Assembly (NCBI GenBank): GCA_001783565.1
Contig: MFMT01000042.1
Span: 29,408-61,552 of the forward strand
From: Candidatus Kaiserbacteria bacterium RIFOXYD1_FULL_42_15
GTDB taxonomy: Bacteria > Patescibacteriota > Minisyncoccia > Phycocordibacterales > UBA918
DNA: 32,145 nucleotides
Direction of reading: 5' to 3'
Position 1 is the stretch's first letter. Every line of letters begins with the position of its first letter. This document shows positions 1 through 32,107 of the stretch, one piece after another. The position numbers and the translations under genes were made by a program. The notes under the pieces were generated by a model that ran no database searches, was not told the origin of the DNA, and was given only the letters and a program-made list of their open reading frames with translations.

Positions 1-86
1 CAATAGGAGGACAATGAAATTGACCACGGATTAGAATCTGTAGTCAATCATTTCCATTAGAGTTAAGAACCATAAAGAAAGTAAAT

Positions 87-170
87 GCGTCGGTGGCAGA
101 GTGGTCAATTGCAACAGACTGTAAATCTGTCGGACATCGTCCTACGAAGGTTCAAATCCTTCCCGGCGCA
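87..170 (+). tRNA. tRNA-Tyr(GTA)
   Basis: Cloverleaf: acceptor GCGTCGG/CCGGCGC, anticodon arm ACAGA-CTGTAAA-TCTGT, long variable arm, T arm GAAGG-TTCAAAT-CCTTC, discriminator A; CCA not encoded. Confidence 0.96.
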
Positions 171-828
171 CAGTAACAAAAATCAGCTCAACTTTTTAGT
201 TGGGCGATTTTTTGTCTGTGCGCCGGGAGTGAGTGATTTAATATCACTCACGTAAGGATTTGAAGCCCGATTGAGCTGGATTATGAGTGAAGCGAAATAA
301 TCCAGCCAATTGGGGTACTGAACATGTAATGTTCAAATCCTTCCCGACGCACCAAATACCAAAACTCAAGCGACAGCTTGAGTTTTGTTGTATTTGGTAG
401 CGCCGGGAAGGATTTGAAAGACGAAGCCGGGGCCCCTCTGGGCCGGCGAGTCGGGGTCGAGCGAATGAGATATTTTGTGAATGAAATGAAACAAAATATC
501 CATGAGAGTGACCAAATCCTTCCCGACGCACGCGTATAAAAATCAGCTCAAGCTTTTGCTTGGGCGATTTTTATTGCGTGCGCCGGGAGCAAGCAAATAG
601 TTTTGCTTGCGTAAGGATTTGAAAGCCACAGCGATGTAGCTTTGCTACGAGCGAGGCGGGTGAGAAGTGATTTGACATCACTTCGCAAGACCTTGCCCGC
701 TATCTTTGAAGCGAAGCGAAAAGTAACGACAAGGTGTACAGAATTCGTAGAATTCGCGAACACTTTGTAGAATTGAACGTAGTGAAAATTATACTTAGTG
801 ATTCGTGTTCAAATCCTTCCCGGCGCAC
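171..828 (+). repeat. Array of tRNA-Tyr 3'-end copies (3 inverted, 3 direct) separated by palindromic modules
   Basis: Inverted copies at about 217-264, 400-418 and 578-623; direct copies (GTT)CAAATCCTTCCCG(A/G)CGCA at 331-354, 513-531 and 807-828. Confidence 0.93.
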
Positions 829-830
829 TC

Positions 831-865
831 TTGACATAAGTTTAACTTAAGTTAAACTTATGTCA
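831..865 (+). promoter_or_regulatory. Sigma70-type promoter covered by a perfect 34-bp palindrome (likely TA operator)
   Basis: TTGACA 831-836, 16-bp spacer, TAAACT 853-858, ATG at 865; 832-865 TGACATAAGTTTAACTTAAGTTAAACTTATGTCA is its own reverse complement. Confidence 0.75.
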
Positions 866-1131
866 TGAATACAAAAACAGACAAGGATATTGTCGGTCTT
901 AAAGAACTTCGTGAAAACATGGAGACTTATATAGAGCGCGTAAACAAAGGTGAATCAATCACCGTATTTCGTCGTTCTACTCCCCTGTTCCGTATCACTC
1001 CGATCGATGCTGAAGAAGGGGGTTGGGAAACTGTCATCGACTTCACCAAAGAATCAGGTCACGGAGTTCCGATAGAACAACTACTCGCCTCAATGAAAAA
1101 AATGCATGGACAGAAATCAAAAATTTCTTAA
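865..1131 (+). CDS. Phd/YefM-family antitoxin
   Basis: 88 aa; N-terminal 'IVGLKELRENMETYIERVNKGESITVFRRSTPLFRI' fits the Phd DNA-binding pattern; overlaps the downstream toxin-like gene. Confidence 0.8.
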   Translation: MNTKTDKDIVGLKELRENMETYIERVNKGESITVFRRSTPLFRITPIDAEEGGWETVIDFTKESGHGVPIEQLLASMKKMHGQKSKIS

Positions 1132-1348
1132 AAGGCTCAGTAATAAAGAATTTGATGCCGTAGAGCATATTCTACGGAAGATTTTAGTCAGAGACACCTC
1201 TAGTCTTGATATTAAAAAACTATCTAGTTATAAAGATGTGTACCGAGTTCGAATAGGAAGCATTCGTATTATCTTTCTAGACACGGGAAATCATACTGAG
1301 GTTTTAGAAATCAGCAGAAGGAGTGAGAAGACGTATAAAGATTTTTAG
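1106..1348 (+). CDS. RelE/ParE-family toxin
   Basis: 80 aa basic protein with 'IKKL...YRVRIGSIRIIF...VLEISRR', typical of RelE. Confidence 0.85.
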   Translation: MDRNQKFLKRLSNKEFDAVEHILRKILVRDTSSLDIKKLSSYKDVYRVRIGSIRIIFLDTGNHTEVLEISRRSEKTYKDF

Positions 1349-8932: not shown

Positions 8933-9005
8933 GTCCTGGTGGCGAAGTGGTTAACGCTACGGTTTGCAAAACCGTCATTCGTGGGTTCGACTCCCACCCA
9001 GGACT
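8933..9005 (+). tRNA. tRNA-Cys(GCA)
   Basis: Acceptor GTCCTGG/CCAGGAC, anticodon arm ACGGT-TTGCAAA-ACCGT, T arm GTGGG-TTCGACT-CCCAC, U discriminator. Confidence 0.96.
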
Positions 9006-9199
9006 CATTTATATAAAAACGTACATTCGTACGTTTTTATATAAATGAGTCCTGGGAGTTGTGTGCCTGCGCACACAACGTTGGGAATCGAACAGCGGAG
9101 TTATGTTTTCTCCTCTTCCCTAGAGGAGAAAACAGACGAGCTGCGTCCAGCGTTCTTATGAGCGTCAGCAAATTAGAAAAAGAGGGACGATTTCCACCA
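8997..9199 (+). repeat. tRNA-Cys 3'-end inverted copy, module and degenerate direct copy
   Basis: Perfect 28-bp inverted repeat 8997-9024/9029-9056; inverted T arm TGGGAATCGAA 9082-9092; degenerate direct copy CGATTTCCACCA 9188-9199. Confidence 0.85.
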
Positions 9200-9245
9200 T
9201 AAAACAGAATCAAATTTGAAGTAAATCTAGAAAGGAGTTCCCCTT

Positions 9246-9329
9246 GCCGGGATGGTGTAATCGGTAGCCACGCAAGACTTAAAATTTTGTGGGCGCAAGC
9301 CCGTGCGGGTTCAAGTCCCGCTCCCGGCA
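9246..9329 (+). tRNA. tRNA-Leu(TAA)
   Basis: Acceptor GCCGGGA/TCCCGGC, anticodon loop CTTAAAA, long variable arm, T arm GCGGG-TTCAAGT-CCCGC. Confidence 0.95.
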
Positions 9330-9675
9330 CAATGTAATAGTACGTCAGATTTTTATCTGGCGTACTATTACATTTGCCCCAGGGACTTGAAGAGGTTGCC
9401 TGCTAGATTATGAGCTAGCGAAATAATCTAGCGACAACCTGTACTGAACTCGTAGAGTTCAAGTCCCGCTCCCGGCACAAATTAAAAACTATCATTCTTG
9501 AGAGTTTTTAATTTGTGCCGGGAAGAAAGCAAACTGCTTTGCTTTCGGGCGGGACTTGAAAGGCGGAGCGACGTGAGTTTACGAACAAGCGAGCCAGGGT
9601 CGTGAGCGATATATTTTTAAGGAGTTCACGACTATAAAAATAATCGACTCCTGACCAAGTCCCGCTCCCGGCACA
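9330..9675 (+). repeat. Array of tRNA-Leu(TAA) 3'-end copies (2 inverted, 2 direct)
   Basis: Inverted 9376-9391 (degenerate) and 9514-9560; direct 9457-9479 and 9656-9675 (CAAGTCCCGCTCCCGGCACA). Confidence 0.92.
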
Positions 9676-9751
9676 AAGTATTATTAAGAATATATAGATA
9701 GGTTGTCTAATTTAAATTTATCTTGTACACTTTGCTCTACCAAATATATAT

Positions 9752-9824
9752 GCGCCCTTAGCTCAGTTGGTAGAGCAGCTCCCTCTTAAGGAGACGGTCC
9801 AAGGTTCGAATCCTTGAGGGCGCA
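9752..9824 (+). tRNA. tRNA-Lys(CTT)
   Basis: Acceptor GCGCCCT/AGGGCGC, D arm GCTC-AGTTGGTA-GAGC, anticodon loop CTCTTAA, T arm CAAGG-TTCGAAT-CCTTG. Confidence 0.95.
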
Positions 9825-10107
9825 CAAAGGTAAAGCAAAAACACTATCATAATATGATAGTGTTTTTGTTTTAAAAACTGAACTGCTTCAGTTTTGTGCC
9901 TGTGTGCGAGACGGAGCGATGTTTTTCTGCCCCCTTAGGCAGGAAAATAAGTGAGTCGGGGTAGCGAGTGCTTAGTAAAATAAAGACAAAGTATTTATTT
10001 TGGTTAGCAACTCGTGACCACACAGATACATCTATGTGCTATACATGACATGATTTTGTGACTAAATGATAATGTGTTACACTCTGTCCACACGATTTTG
10101 TGTATCC

Positions 10108-10189
10108 GCGCGAGTGGCGTAATTGGTAGCCGCGTTAGTCTTAGGAACTAATGGAGCAATCCGTGGAGGTTCAAGTCCTCTCTCGCGCA
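10108..10189 (+). tRNA. tRNA-Leu(TAG)
   Basis: Acceptor GCGCGAG/CTCGCGC, anticodon arm TTAGT-CTTAGGA-ACTAA, variable arm, T arm GGAGG-TTCAAGT-CCTCT. Confidence 0.95.
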
Positions 10190-10339
10190 CAAAAGAAAAA
10201 CCGTCCCGCAAGGGCGGTTTTTTGACTGCGCGAGAAGTAGTGTGTGGGACACACTACGGGAGGACTTGAAGAGGTTGCCAGCTCTTTTGAAAAAAGAGCG
10301 ACAACCTGTACTGAACTCGTAGAGTTCAAGTCCTCTCTC
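10190..10339 (+). repeat. Terminator-like hairpin, then tRNA-Leu(TAG) 3'-end inverted copy, module and direct copy
   Basis: Hairpin 10196-10223; inverted copy 10227-10270; direct copy GTTCAAGTCCTCTCTC 10324-10339. Confidence 0.9.
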
Positions 10340-10362
10340 CACATTTCCTATATAATAAACAA

Positions 10363-10849: not shown

Positions 10850-11004
10850 CGTCTTTGCGAGTGAGAAAGTCCAGTGGACTTTCGCAAGACCTTGCCAGCT
10901 CTTTTGTAAAAAGAGCGACAAGGTGTACAGTCCCTGTTAAGGGAAAGCGCGGCAATCCACGTCCATCATCGTGTTCGTCTTCGCGAGTCGCAACGTGGCG
11001 ATCC
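10850..11004 (+). repeat. Two CGTC-type arms, the first carrying an inserted three-hairpin module
   Basis: CGTCTTTGCGAG-[10862-10942]-GAAAGCGCGGCAATCC, then CGTCTTCGCGAGTCGCAACGTGGCGATCC. Confidence 0.85.
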
Positions 11005-14383: not shown

Positions 14384-14638
14384 CGTGGATTGCTTCGCGC
14401 GACTCGCAAAGACGTTTCACTTTGTGTTCGTCTTCGCGAGGAGTGGAGTGGCAACGTGAAAAAGTGATTCAATATCACTTTGCAAGACTAGTTGAGCAGG
14501 TTTGTGAGTGAAACGAAACAAACTGGCCAACTAGTGGACAGTCCCTGTAAGGGAATGACGTGGCGATCCAGGGTGGCATGACGAACGATGTGGATTGCCA
14601 CGTTGCGACTCGCCTGTCTGCGCAGGCAGACAAAGACG
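14384..14638 (+). repeat. Composite CGTC-type element with a 96-bp inserted module
   Basis: Colinear and near-identical to 17268-17427 except for extra 14457-14552. Confidence 0.9.
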
Positions 14639-25823: not shown

Positions 25824-26602
25824 GGATTGCCTGCCTGCACATGTATAACACCTAACGAGCCAGCAGGTGGGCTTCATGACGACTTGCAAAAACGGTAGTC
25901 TTCGTCATTGCGAGAAGGGTGACCGCAGTCTAATGACGTGGCAAATCCATGACCGTACAGAAACGTGGATTGCTTCGTTGTGACTCGCAAAGACGGGTAC
26001 GAAGAACGACACCCCACCATCGTCTTTGCGAGGAATGAGCTGGCAAGCAAATGACGTGGCAATCCACACCATCACCGTCTTTGAGGAGGGAGCTGGCAAG
26101 CGTGAAAAAGTGACTCAATGTTGTGTAAAATAATAAGCGTAGCGACTATATTTTTCATACATAGAATTTTTTATCCTTAATAAAAATTCTTGCACTTTGC
26201 AGCCAACTTGAGCTGGTTTGTACCCACCTTTAGCTGCGAGCAAAGCGTGGCAGGAAATAAAATAGCCAATGAGTGGACAGTCCCTGTTAAGGTGAGAAAT
26301 GTCTGGGTGAGAAAGTCCAGTGGACTTTCTCAAGAGGTTGCCTACTATTTTGCAAAAATAGCGTCAACCTGAACAGCTTCTGTATAGAAGACATTTCGCA
26401 GCCACATTGAGCTAGTTTTACCCACCTTTAGCTGCGAGCGAAGCGTGGCAGGAAATAAAGTAGCCAATGAGTGGACAGTCCCTGTTAAGGTGAGAAAAGC
26501 ATGGGATGCTTTTCGCAAGACTCATTGAGGGATTTTGTGAGTGCAACTAAACAAAATACCCAATGAGTGGACAGTCCCTGTAAGGGAGCAACGTGGTGAT
26601 CC
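25824..26602 (+). repeat. Large composite CGTC-type repeat cluster with tandem and nested modules
   Basis: Multiple CGTC arms; about 100-bp direct repeat 26195-26299/26395-26498; CAATGAGTGGACAGTCCCTGT three times. Confidence 0.92.
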
Positions 26603-28829: not shown

Positions 28830-30062
28830 ATGGAACAAATAAAATCAGACGTTGAATCATTTGCACGTATCCGAGTAGTCGGCGCCGGAGGTTCTGGCAA
28901 CAATGCCGTGAACTACATGGTGTCATCAAAAGTCAAAGGAGTAGAATTTATTGCCGTCAACAGTGATGCTCAAGATTTACATCATTCACTTGCCAAGAAA
29001 AAAATTCACATTGGAAAAAATCTTACTCGTGGTCTTGGTGCTGGTGGTAATTCGGATATGGGACGCAGAGCAGCCGAAGAAACTCGTGAAGAAATTAATA
29101 ATGCCATCAAGGGTTCTGACATGATTTTTATCACTTGTGGTATGGGTGGTGGTACCGGTACTGGATCTGCTCCAGTAATCGCAAAAATTGCTCGTGACAG
29201 TGGAGCCCTAACTGTGGGTGTTGTCACCAAGCCATTTTTATTTGAAGGTCAAGAGCGAATGCGGGTTGCTATGCAAGGTATTGAAGAACTAAAGAAAGAA
29301 GTCGACGCTCTTATCACCATTCCTAATGATCGCCTTCTAGCTATTGTTGATAAAGAGACTTCAGTTCGCAGTGCTTTTGAACAATGTGATAATGTGCTCA
29401 AACAAGCAGTGGAGGGTATTTCTGACCTTATTACCATGCCTGGTATAATCAACGTTGACTTTGCCGACATCCGTAGTGTTATGGAAAATGCCGGCTCTGC
29501 TTTGATGGGAGTTGGGGTTTCTTCTGGAGAAAAACGGGCCGAGGAGGCGGCTCAATCAGCCATTAATTCCCCTCTACTTGAAGTATCTATCACGGGTGCC
29601 AAGGGAGTATTATTTGCCATTGCTGGCGGTGATGATTTGGGAATGTTGGAAATTCAAGATGCAGCTCGAGTCATTACTGAGTCAATTGACCCACAAGCAA
29701 AAGTAATCTTTGGCGCTATCAAGGATGACAAGCTAAAGAAAAATGAGGTCAAGGTTACCGTCATCGCTACCGGCTTTCCTGAAGAAACAGTTCACCAAAA
29801 CAGTATATCCAGGCGGGCACCTGTGGGTGCATCAATGGAAAATGGGGAGGAAAAAATGCCAGAAACTCGTGGTCGTATCTTTAATTCGCTTACCGCTCCG
29901 AGACGAATAGATCCAGAAGAAATGCCTATTCAGAAAAATGACTCAATTGAATCACATAAAGAATTACCCAGACGTGACCCAAAACCAGTTGATCCAGTAG
30001 ATGAGGAAGAGGACGACTGGGGCGCAGTACCTGCTTTTCTGAGAAGGTCAAAGTTGAAATAA
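28830..30062 (+). CDS. ftsZ: Cell division protein FtsZ
   Basis: GMGGGTGTG, INVDFAD, C-terminal 'VPAFLRR'. Confidence 0.98.
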   Translation: MEQIKSDVESFARIRVVGAGGSGNNAVNYMVSSKVKGVEFIAVNSDAQDLHHSLAKKKIHIGKNLTRGLGAGGNSDMGRRAAEETREEINNAIKGSDMIFITCGMGGGTGTGSAPVIAKIARDSGALTVGVVTKPFLFEGQERMRVAMQGIEELKKEVDALITIPNDRLLAIVDKETSVRSAFEQCDNVLKQAVEGISDLITMPGIINVDFADIRSVMENAGSALMGVGVSSGEKRAEEAAQSAINSPLLEVSITGAKGVLFAIAGGDDLGMLEIQDAARVITESIDPQAKVIFGAIKDDKLKKNEVKVTVIATGFPEETVHQNSISRRAPVGASMENGEEKMPETRGRIFNSLTAPRRIDPEEMPIQKNDSIESHKELPRRDPKPVDPVDEEEDDWGAVPAFLRRSKLK

Positions 30063-31864: not shown

Positions 31865-31951
31865 GGAAGAGTCGCATAGTGGTCTAGTGCACCGGTTTCG
31901 AAAACCGGCATCGGGGAAACTCGATCGAGGGTTCAAATCCCTCCTCTTCCG
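31865..31951 (+). tRNA. tRNA-Ser(CGA)
   Basis: Acceptor GGAAGAG/CTCTTCC, anticodon arm CCGGT-TTCGAAA-ACCGG, long variable arm, T arm GAGGG-TTCAAAT-CCCTC, G discriminator. Confidence 0.96.
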
Positions 31952-32107
31952 CAGTGAATGAAATGAACGAAGGAAGAGGAGGTTGCAGCATTTTGAAAAA
32001 ATGCGTAGCAAGATTTGAAGCCCGATTGAGCTAGATTATGAGCTTGCGAAATAATCTAGCCAATTGGGGTACTGAACATGTAATGTTCAAATCCCTCCTC
32101 TTCCGCA
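31952..32107 (+). repeat. tRNA-Ser 3'-end inverted copy, module and direct copy
   Basis: Interrupted inverted copy 31972-32019; module 32020-32084; direct copy GTTCAAATCCCTCCTCTTCCGCA 32085-32107. Confidence 0.92.

Follow-up and report, generated by a model that had tools for sequence, protein, structure and literature searches.

We analyzed a 32,145-nt stretch of DNA, here called the window, from Candidatus Kaiserbacteria bacterium RIFOXYD1_FULL_42_15 (Patescibacteria; host genome G000, 757 kb, 84% complete), in which a tRNA-Tyr gene is followed by an array of alternating inverted and direct copies of its own 3′ end. The window covers positions 29,408–61,552 of contig MFMT01000042.1 on the forward strand; coordinates follow window numbering (1–32,145), and the array features all lie on the plus strand. 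The tRNA-Tyr(GTA) gene occupies 87–171 (ARAGORN; Rfam tRNA 60.9 bits), and its segment from the T loop to C74 (X0, 151–171) is the template of the copies, or echoes. A search for these last 21 nt with up to three mismatches, controlled by 100 shuffles, recovered direct echoes at 332–352 (one mismatch), 511–531 (three), and 808–828 (none) and an uninterrupted inverted echo at 398–418 (two mismatches); there was no match in the shuffles. Two more inverted copies are each interrupted by a 25-nt hairpin (218–228 plus 254–264, and 578–588 plus 613–623). The array therefore contains three direct and three inverted copies in strictly alternating orientation, and the six copies reported in the first-pass annotation of this DNA proved accurate to 1–2 nt. 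Across the 757-kb genome, a 19-mer of the tRNA-Tyr echo is confined to this locus.

Architecture of the tRNA-Tyr Array

The first unit begins with an intrinsic-terminator-like hairpin and T run (h1, 172–217; terminator scan 186–205 plus T tail), which forms the turn-around from X0 to the first inverted echo, and 151–264 as a whole is predicted to fold into one long hairpin (z −14.1). This inverted echo (X′, 218–264) comprises the complement of the acceptor 3′ strand (218–228), a small hairpin, hp1 (229–253; similar to 666–682, family D5), and the complement of the T stem and T loop (254–264). Module E1 (265–330) follows, a bare GTACWG core (type A; covariance model R1 match at 261–334, 75.8 bits) in which helix P2 encloses a hairpin and is followed by GTACTG and a small GTA-loop hairpin. 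Direct echo X1 (331–352) differs from the tRNA by one mismatch (G69 to A) and is followed by CA, giving CCA. In the second unit, a bidirectional terminator-like hairpin (h2, 353–399; terminator scan 360–387, both strands) leads into the uninterrupted inverted echo 2 (398–418), with a predicted fold of z −11.9 for 332–418. Next come module E2 (419–510; type B; fold z −6.1), a two-hairpin frame whose GTGAC end lies just before the echo, and direct echo X2 (511–531, three mismatches). The third unit consists of the terminator-like hairpin h3 (532–577; terminator scan; family D1), inverted echo 3 (578–623), interrupted by hp1 (589–612), module E3 (624–806; type C), which is a type-B frame with nested hp1 and GTACWG core (R1 match 685–755, 75.5 bits), and the mismatch-free direct echo X3 (807–828), which adjoins the palindromic promoter of the next operon. 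The stretch X2–h3–X′ is 82% identical to X0–h1–X′ over 77 nt.

The two kinds of gap differ in content. Direct-to-inverted gaps (172–217, 353–399, and 532–577) are terminator-like hairpins with T runs that, together with the flanking copies, form hairpins with 40-bp arms (z −11 to −14); the first-pass annotation had recognized them as simple hairpins and missed their terminator-like nature. Inverted-to-direct gaps hold three unlike multi-stem modules (z −6 to −11), each enclosed on folding by a stem that pairs the inverted with the direct copy. Because both gap types fold with their flanking copies, any inverted copy can pair with either neighbor. The inverted copies are complements of the tRNA 3′ strand and do not repeat its 5′ strand, with C opposite G69 (Tyr) and A opposite U70 (Ala) as markers of 3′-strand templating. 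Since X1 and X2 carry A in place of tRNA G69, pairing with their inverted partners produces a C–A mismatch on the tRNA-sense strand.

Echoes also lie upstream of the gene. Nucleotides 1–18 of tRNA-Tyr are copied directly three times, at −545, −374, and −186 (outside the window and partly masked), and with the three direct 3′ echoes the pattern becomes 5′5′5′-tRNA-3′3′3′. The tRNA-Tyr leader (1–86), with a promoter-like site at 8–37 and a 13-nt inverted D-loop copy at 15–27, is the final piece of this 5′-echo array, which otherwise falls outside the window. Locus L001 889–1433 (G000:C42:28948–29492) and window 1–86 make up the 5′-echo stretch, which is partly N-masked; each 5′ echo is followed by small hairpins that interrupt the D-loop region and by a promoter-like leader repeat with an inverted D-loop copy.

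Contigs from other groundwater samples carry the same junctions (sample X3, 136–333 and 538–861; sample X5, 323–422 and 513–861; sample X7, 407–765), so the array is not an artefact of one assembly. Some of these contigs link one direct copy to another, skipping 181, 179, or 224 nt, and may be variants in which one unit was lost. In sample X7, a contig with a loose end at 212 joins the same terminator half and an hp1-like hairpin to an inverted copy fitting the 3′ end of a different tRNA, a sign that in related strains these modules frame other tRNAs as well.

Echoes at Other tRNA Genes

The echo pattern is widespread in the genome. We scanned 700 nt downstream of all 37 ARAGORN tRNAs, with reversed patterns as control, a check that the first-pass annotation had proposed for every tRNA. 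The gene's own last 18 nt are repeated directly at 16/37 tRNAs (control 0), the last 10 nt are inverted at 16/37 (control 0), and the preceding 11 nt are inverted at 14/37 (control 1); 20/37 have a 3′-end echo of some type. Upstream, the first 16 nt are repeated directly at four tRNAs (control 0). The architecture described at a single tRNA was real, and what had been missed was the genus-wide family behind it and the 5′ echoes. Frames like E2 stand behind tRNA-Trp, Ala, Phe, Arg-GCG, Leu-CAA, Leu-TAA, Leu-GAG, and Lys-CTT, and relatives of E3 behind tRNA-Asp and tRNA-Val(TAC) and at tRNA-free sites; a module is also found inside the T loop of a tRNA-Arg pseudo-copy. Where a hairpin is inserted in an inverted copy, its position is always the acceptor/T-stem junction. 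At tRNA-Leu-GAG, Lys-CTT, and Arg-GCG, units are built on the trailer or terminator half rather than on the tRNA, which makes a locally derived stem, not tRNA likeness, the common denominator.

Tyrosine integrases duplicate T-loop att sites, and direct repeats that begin in the T loop and extend to the 3′ end, leaving the tRNA gene intact, are the classic attL/attR footprint. The echoes share both features, and scars of integration at the T loop, accreted in tandem, or alternatively misassembly, might be invoked. Yet the units are gene-free and 110–300 bp long, without integrase, cargo, or ORFs at that spacing, integration does not account for the inverted copies, and twenty tRNAs, about half of the total, are affected; the only tyrosine recombinase of the genome (PF00589 match) lies on another contig (C29). 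As the same architecture occurs in independent samples and in 58 genomes, scars and artefact alike are contradicted by the data and extremely improbable, in line with the first-pass argument that att scars do not explain the array. Its suggestion that the echoes are decoy att sites finds no support in a genome with one tyrosine recombinase.

The Modules Form a Structured Repeat Family

The modules belong to a lineage-restricted, non-coding, modular repeat family with conserved structure. Its parts are a terminator-type hairpin (h), the small hairpin hp1, a 72-nt GTACWG core, and the type-B frame. The first-pass annotation had posited a shared module loaded between the copies, and E1 is indeed identical (66/66 nt) to the module behind tRNA-Leu(CAA), with unlike flanks. 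Parts are also nested, with cores inside type-B frames, as in E3; E2 is a bare type-B frame.

The core is laid out as AAG, helix P2 around a variable hairpin, the motif GTAC(A/T)G, and a small GTA-loop hairpin. Of the 20 pairs in an alignment of 24 core copies, 18 show compensatory changes. Across a covariance-model set of 104 core matches (87 distinct), 95.7% of cells pair, as opposed to 63.5% in shuffles and 36–42% in slid controls, and there are 458 double changes versus 119 in shuffles, in an alignment that was fitted to the model and so favors pairing. Pairing above both controls and double changes above the shuffles indicate that the core structure is under selection. Folding energies of the two strands did not differ (11/24 cores more stable on the given strand). 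X′ was better kept than X (17 vs 7) only with units picked by X′; since units picked by module gave no significant difference (n = 24, P = 0.21), we dropped the idea that X′ is the better conserved arm. An Rfam scan of window 1–1200 at E up to 5 returned the tRNA plus sub-threshold matches to miRNA hairpins only.

The genome contains 73 cores in total. Nineteen are found no more than 700 nt downstream of a tRNA, where about one would be expected, and all of these are co-oriented with the tRNA. The remainder cluster away from tRNAs in a second, REP-like frame. Most cores (61/73) are intergenic, with no bias of orientation relative to neighboring ORFs (27 same, 25 opposite). The second, dispersed frame consists of a 12-nt motif, a hairpin, the core, and an 11-nt motif, and it also occurs without a core, in both orientations. 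Within the window, tRNA-distant cores stand at 10884–10945, 14482–14555, 26330–26391, and 26515–26588.

Distribution across Genomes and Local Origin of the Arms

Judged by the relatives of its ClpB, the organism belongs among the Paceibacterota/Patescibacteria. Copy number is patchy within the genus. The core was found in 58 of 61 genus genomes, at 0–77 copies each, and in 1/150 other genomes of a phylum-wide sample; in five congeners with low or zero copy number, the array DNA had no match at all. Echoes are tied to the modules. Genome G042 (99% complete) has no cores, and none of its 30 tRNAs has a direct or inverted echo; G007 has 37 cores and, under a strict test, direct echoes at 9/32 tRNAs, with additional units recognizable by eye from decayed copies, and the affected tRNAs differ from those of the genome studied here. 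Among ten relatives, the tRNA-Tyr locus has units in five and none in five. The tRNA-Tyr of G003 is a plain CCA-encoding gene followed by a terminator. The five unit-bearing relatives have four different T-stem sequences, and each echo fits its own tRNA while the modules differ. Because echoes match their own tRNA while modules vary, the arms are of local origin, which bears out the first-pass proposal that locally adjacent sequence is copied in both directions.

A rival explanation is pure replication accidents, in the form of miniature tandem-inversion duplications at terminator hairpins in which pre-existing repeats mark the junctions and no mobile element takes part. Accidents of this kind would have to occur more than 20 times independently per genome and to place identical modules at separate loci, and they should have left copies in module-free G042, which has terminators and T loops as well. 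We therefore consider this explanation improbable, even though direct, inverted, and direct copies in succession, with a hairpin at each junction, are the hallmark of snap-back template switching and the TTCGAA of most T loops is itself palindromic.

Comparison of a module-free congener's trailer with the distal and proximal flanks was uninformative, the intergenic DNA being too diverged to match either. A phage collection searched with the array gave no match. A 17-base core pattern was found in 28 viral contigs; none of these fits the covariance model, and we take the matches to be chance.

Beyond the genus, G233, which belongs to another family of the class, has two tandem units of the same architecture with a different module at tRNA-Ile(GAT) (L269). 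The order there is terminator, inverted T-arm copy, module, and direct echo; it was the one case among 38 tRNAs sampled from 29 other families. Two loci in G007 involve the anticodon loop: at tRNA-Thr-TGT (L112) the 3′ half of the tRNA is doubled by a 111-nt tandem repeat that begins in the anticodon loop, and at tRNA-Ile-GAT (L111) a partial tRNA-Ile copy (nt 26–75) has a reversed core in its anticodon loop.

Origin of the Units

We propose, with roughly even confidence, that the array consists of three members of a family of non-autonomous mobile or mosaic DNA-level elements that settle preferentially at tRNA 3′ ends and are framed by fold-back copies of their target. The weight of evidence favors a DNA-level mosaic element over a regulator, because the family is lineage-restricted and patchy, identical modules occur at different loci, modules are nested, terminators precede the inverted copies, and congeners are viable without the system. 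Module E would occupy the loop between two stem arms, X′ and X, which come from the adjoining target, usually from tRNA position 53/56 to C74, and lie outside the family, so that a unit reads X0–terminator–X′–E–X. We infer that fold-back (snap-back) copying of DNA at two hairpin turn-arounds generates the arms, a process that would resemble a miniature tandem-inversion duplication and would leave the functional tRNA 3′ end and its terminator beside the tRNA body. Arrays may then grow and be shuffled through recombination between direct copies and exchange of modules at the shared T-loop/3′-end sequences. Fold-back copying of adjacent sequence combined with a shared module, essentially as first annotated, is the best available description.

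Several observations weigh against such an element. Filled and empty sites among relatives are too distant for the insertion event to be read. Fold-back alone predicts echoes in module-free genomes, and their absence from G042 (0/30 tRNAs) means that a module-specific factor is needed. In the 84%-complete genome we found no reverse transcriptase, TnpB, RtcB, tRNA splicing endonuclease, or Nop domain, and an all-versus-all ORF comparison revealed no multi-copy transposase ORF. Ten genomes with 10–38 cores lack any match to Y1_Tnp, the domain of the proposed candidate enzyme, and the RAYT-like Y1 genes of this genome are each bracketed by their own short palindrome family, unrelated to the core. 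Within the core, G-U pairs outnumber A-C (46 vs 19) on the tRNA-sense strand, 14 of the G-U falling at one pair position, and the unpaired bases AAG, GTAC.G, and the GTA loop are invariant. The invariant bases, the G-U excess, the complete agreement of orientation with tRNAs, and the location of hp1 at the acceptor/T-stem junction would also fit a functional RNA or single-stranded DNA.

If the units were functional structured RNAs, X′–E–X would fold as a tRNA-like minihelix carrying the module, to be excised by RNase P/Z or to act through X′ as an antisense RNA, with roles in tRNA maturation, quality control, or as a decoy. A T-run terminator stands ahead of every X′, however, and congeners live without modules or echoes. 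Copy number varies from 0 to 77, the same cores are found away from tRNAs in another frame and in random orientation to genes, some frames derive from the trailer or terminator half rather than from tRNA sequence, and units 1 and 2 of the tRNA-Tyr array bear their C–A mismatch on the sense strand. These points make an RNA function unlikely in our view, despite the strong covariation of the core helices, the G-U bias on the sense strand, the shared orientation of 19/19 tRNA-linked cores, the position of hp1 where the tRNA body leaves the acceptor/T stack, the CCA formed after 7/20 direct echoes, and the capacity of X′ to pair with either neighboring copy. The related first-pass suggestion of antisense control of pre-tRNA folding is left unsupported by the terminator before each inverted copy and by the congeners that lack the system.

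The candidate enzyme for a DNA-level element is a hairpin-nicking HUH/Y1 protein. Y1/HUH genes, which the first-pass annotation had suggested looking for, do co-occur with the array: this genome has five Y1_Tnp matches, the numbers of Y1 genes and of cores are correlated across 61 genomes (Spearman 0.55, uncorrected for kinship), and Y1 is present in 23/28 high-copy versus 10/33 low-copy genomes. The link itself is unproven because of the ten genomes with at least 10 cores and no Y1. One possibility is that the units are themselves single-stranded-DNA elements moved by these IS200- or RAYT-like proteins, which would recognize the hairpins and target tRNA loops. Conserved sequence at the module ends adjoining hairpins, modules lodged in loops of hairpins that derive from tRNAs (the T loop and, in G007, the anticodon loop of tRNA-Ile), and the Y1 counts themselves are consistent with such movement. 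We nonetheless doubt it, given the Y1-free genomes, the unrelated palindromes around the RAYT-like genes, and a correlation that kinship may shape; to our knowledge, moreover, IS200/IS605 and REP mobility leave no long target-derived repeats. The RAYT-like Y1 genes number four (209–231 aa; contigs C7, C11, C23, and C41; L007–L010), and one of their flanking palindrome families recurs behind tRNA-Arg(TCG) and tRNA-Gln(CTG).

A more specific version of the DNA-level proposal, which we hold only tentatively and think rather less probable than the general one, is that the modules represent a new class of mobile element that inserts at the tRNA T loop or 3′ end and, in the course of insertion, restores a working tRNA 3′ end and terminator through copying of the target primed by a hairpin; the distal echoes would be earlier 3′ ends that were displaced. 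Insertion would then leave inverted and direct 21-nt copies as a "programmable" stem around the element, several distal echoes would keep the CCA that the working gene has lost, and elements would have remodeled most tRNA loci of a bacterial lineage. CCA is encoded by 13/30 tRNA genes in module-free G042, 6/33 in G007, and about 4/36 here (one doubtful), a share that drops with rising module load across these three genomes only. CA follows 7/20 direct echoes in this genome, giving CCA, which would fit displaced tRNA 3′ ends; alternatively, CCA after echoes could stem from junction microhomology. Within G007, loss of encoded CCA showed no significant association with unit presence (CCA in 2/20 tRNA genes with units vs 4/13 without, P = 0.18).

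Patescibacteria genomes are small and thought to be repeat-poor. The one studied here carries a structured repeat family at a density of about one site per 10 kb; this family has remodeled the flanks of roughly half of the tRNA genes, in units built around terminator-like hairpins. If the arms are made during insertion, the process would be transposition-like, with target-derived inverted and direct duplications, and would protect an essential gene while invading it. By its construction, the system looks like an undescribed kind of selfish repeat and not like a regulator; the literature searched yielded no description of this architecture or mode of insertion. There are practical consequences as well: short-read assemblies break at the units, as in Logan contigs that end there, and the units could cause errors when tRNA genes, genomic islands, and att sites are predicted.

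Comparison with Known Systems

Several known systems share part of this architecture. BIME/REP arrays and neisserial intergenic mosaic elements are likewise intergenic, with an alternating repeat of about 20–35 nt and at least two kinds of linker, and they have in common with the present units a mosaic composition, variable copy number, and Y1 (RAYT) genes in the genome. Their alternating repeat is a genome-wide palindromic consensus, whereas here it is the locus-specific tRNA 3′ end and the conserved family members take the place of the "linkers". Miniature inverted-repeat transposable elements (MITEs) and other non-autonomous elements are also short, non-coding, strongly folded, patchy, and nested, with dozens of copies and no transposase of their own. 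Unlike their conserved terminal inverted repeats, however, the arms here differ at each locus and equal the local tRNA end, and in place of a short target-site duplication, which we did not see, there are a 21-nt direct duplication and an inverted copy.

Tandem inversion duplications (DUP-TRP/INV-DUP), which form by snap-back at quasi-palindromes, share the three copies with the middle one inverted and the hairpins at the junctions. Those duplications span kilobases and arise at any quasi-palindrome pair; the copies described here are 21 nt long, recur at one class of target, and depend on a repeat family, with no case at the 30 tRNAs of module-free G042. The mobile tRNA introns of Thermoproteales and the t-elements of plant mitochondria place related short sequences in tRNA loops, or mimics of the acceptor and T arm beside genes. 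In this genome there is no splicing endonuclease or RtcB, and the functional tRNA is uninterrupted, the modules lying in partial copies beside it. Resemblance to tRNA-like processing would be topological only, apart from the CCA encoded after 7/20 echoes.

Other candidates were considered and rejected. TIGR-Tas arrays are described as having 36-nt units with two 8–9-nt spacers and a Nop-domain Tas protein (PMC12045711); the units here measure 110–300 nt, and there is no PF01798 match. By-eye comparison with consensus sequences for the hammerhead and hairpin ribozymes, C/D-box and H/ACA RNAs, group I introns, attC sites, and IS91 targets showed a misfit of the motif or absence of the partner protein.

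Other Features of the Window and Related Loci

The same architecture is found behind five more tRNAs of the window, at 8933–10340 and 31865–32106. Behind tRNA-Cys, an inverted copy lies at about 9047. Two units follow tRNA-Leu(TAA), with a core at 9388–9460 and direct echoes at about 9457–9478 and 9656–9674, and tRNA-Lys(CTT) has a trailer-based type-B unit. tRNA-Leu(TAG) is followed by a core at 10267–10327, and tRNA-Ser(CGA) by a core at 32016–32088 and an echo at about 32085–32106. Further 5′ echoes were observed at tRNA-Arg-TCT (46 nt), Ser-GCT, and Gln-CTG, and at the tRNA-Tyr of G004, G006, G011, and G039. No tRNA-Asn or tRNA-Glu is among the 37 ARAGORN tRNAs of the 84%-complete genome, and these genes may be unassembled or interrupted by modules.

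Within 829–1348, a perfect 20+20-nt palindrome with a TTGACA-16-TAAACT promoter on both strands lies immediately next to the last echo. The palindrome extends into the start of two small ORFs that overlap each other and show weak Phd/YefM-like and ParE-like matches below threshold.

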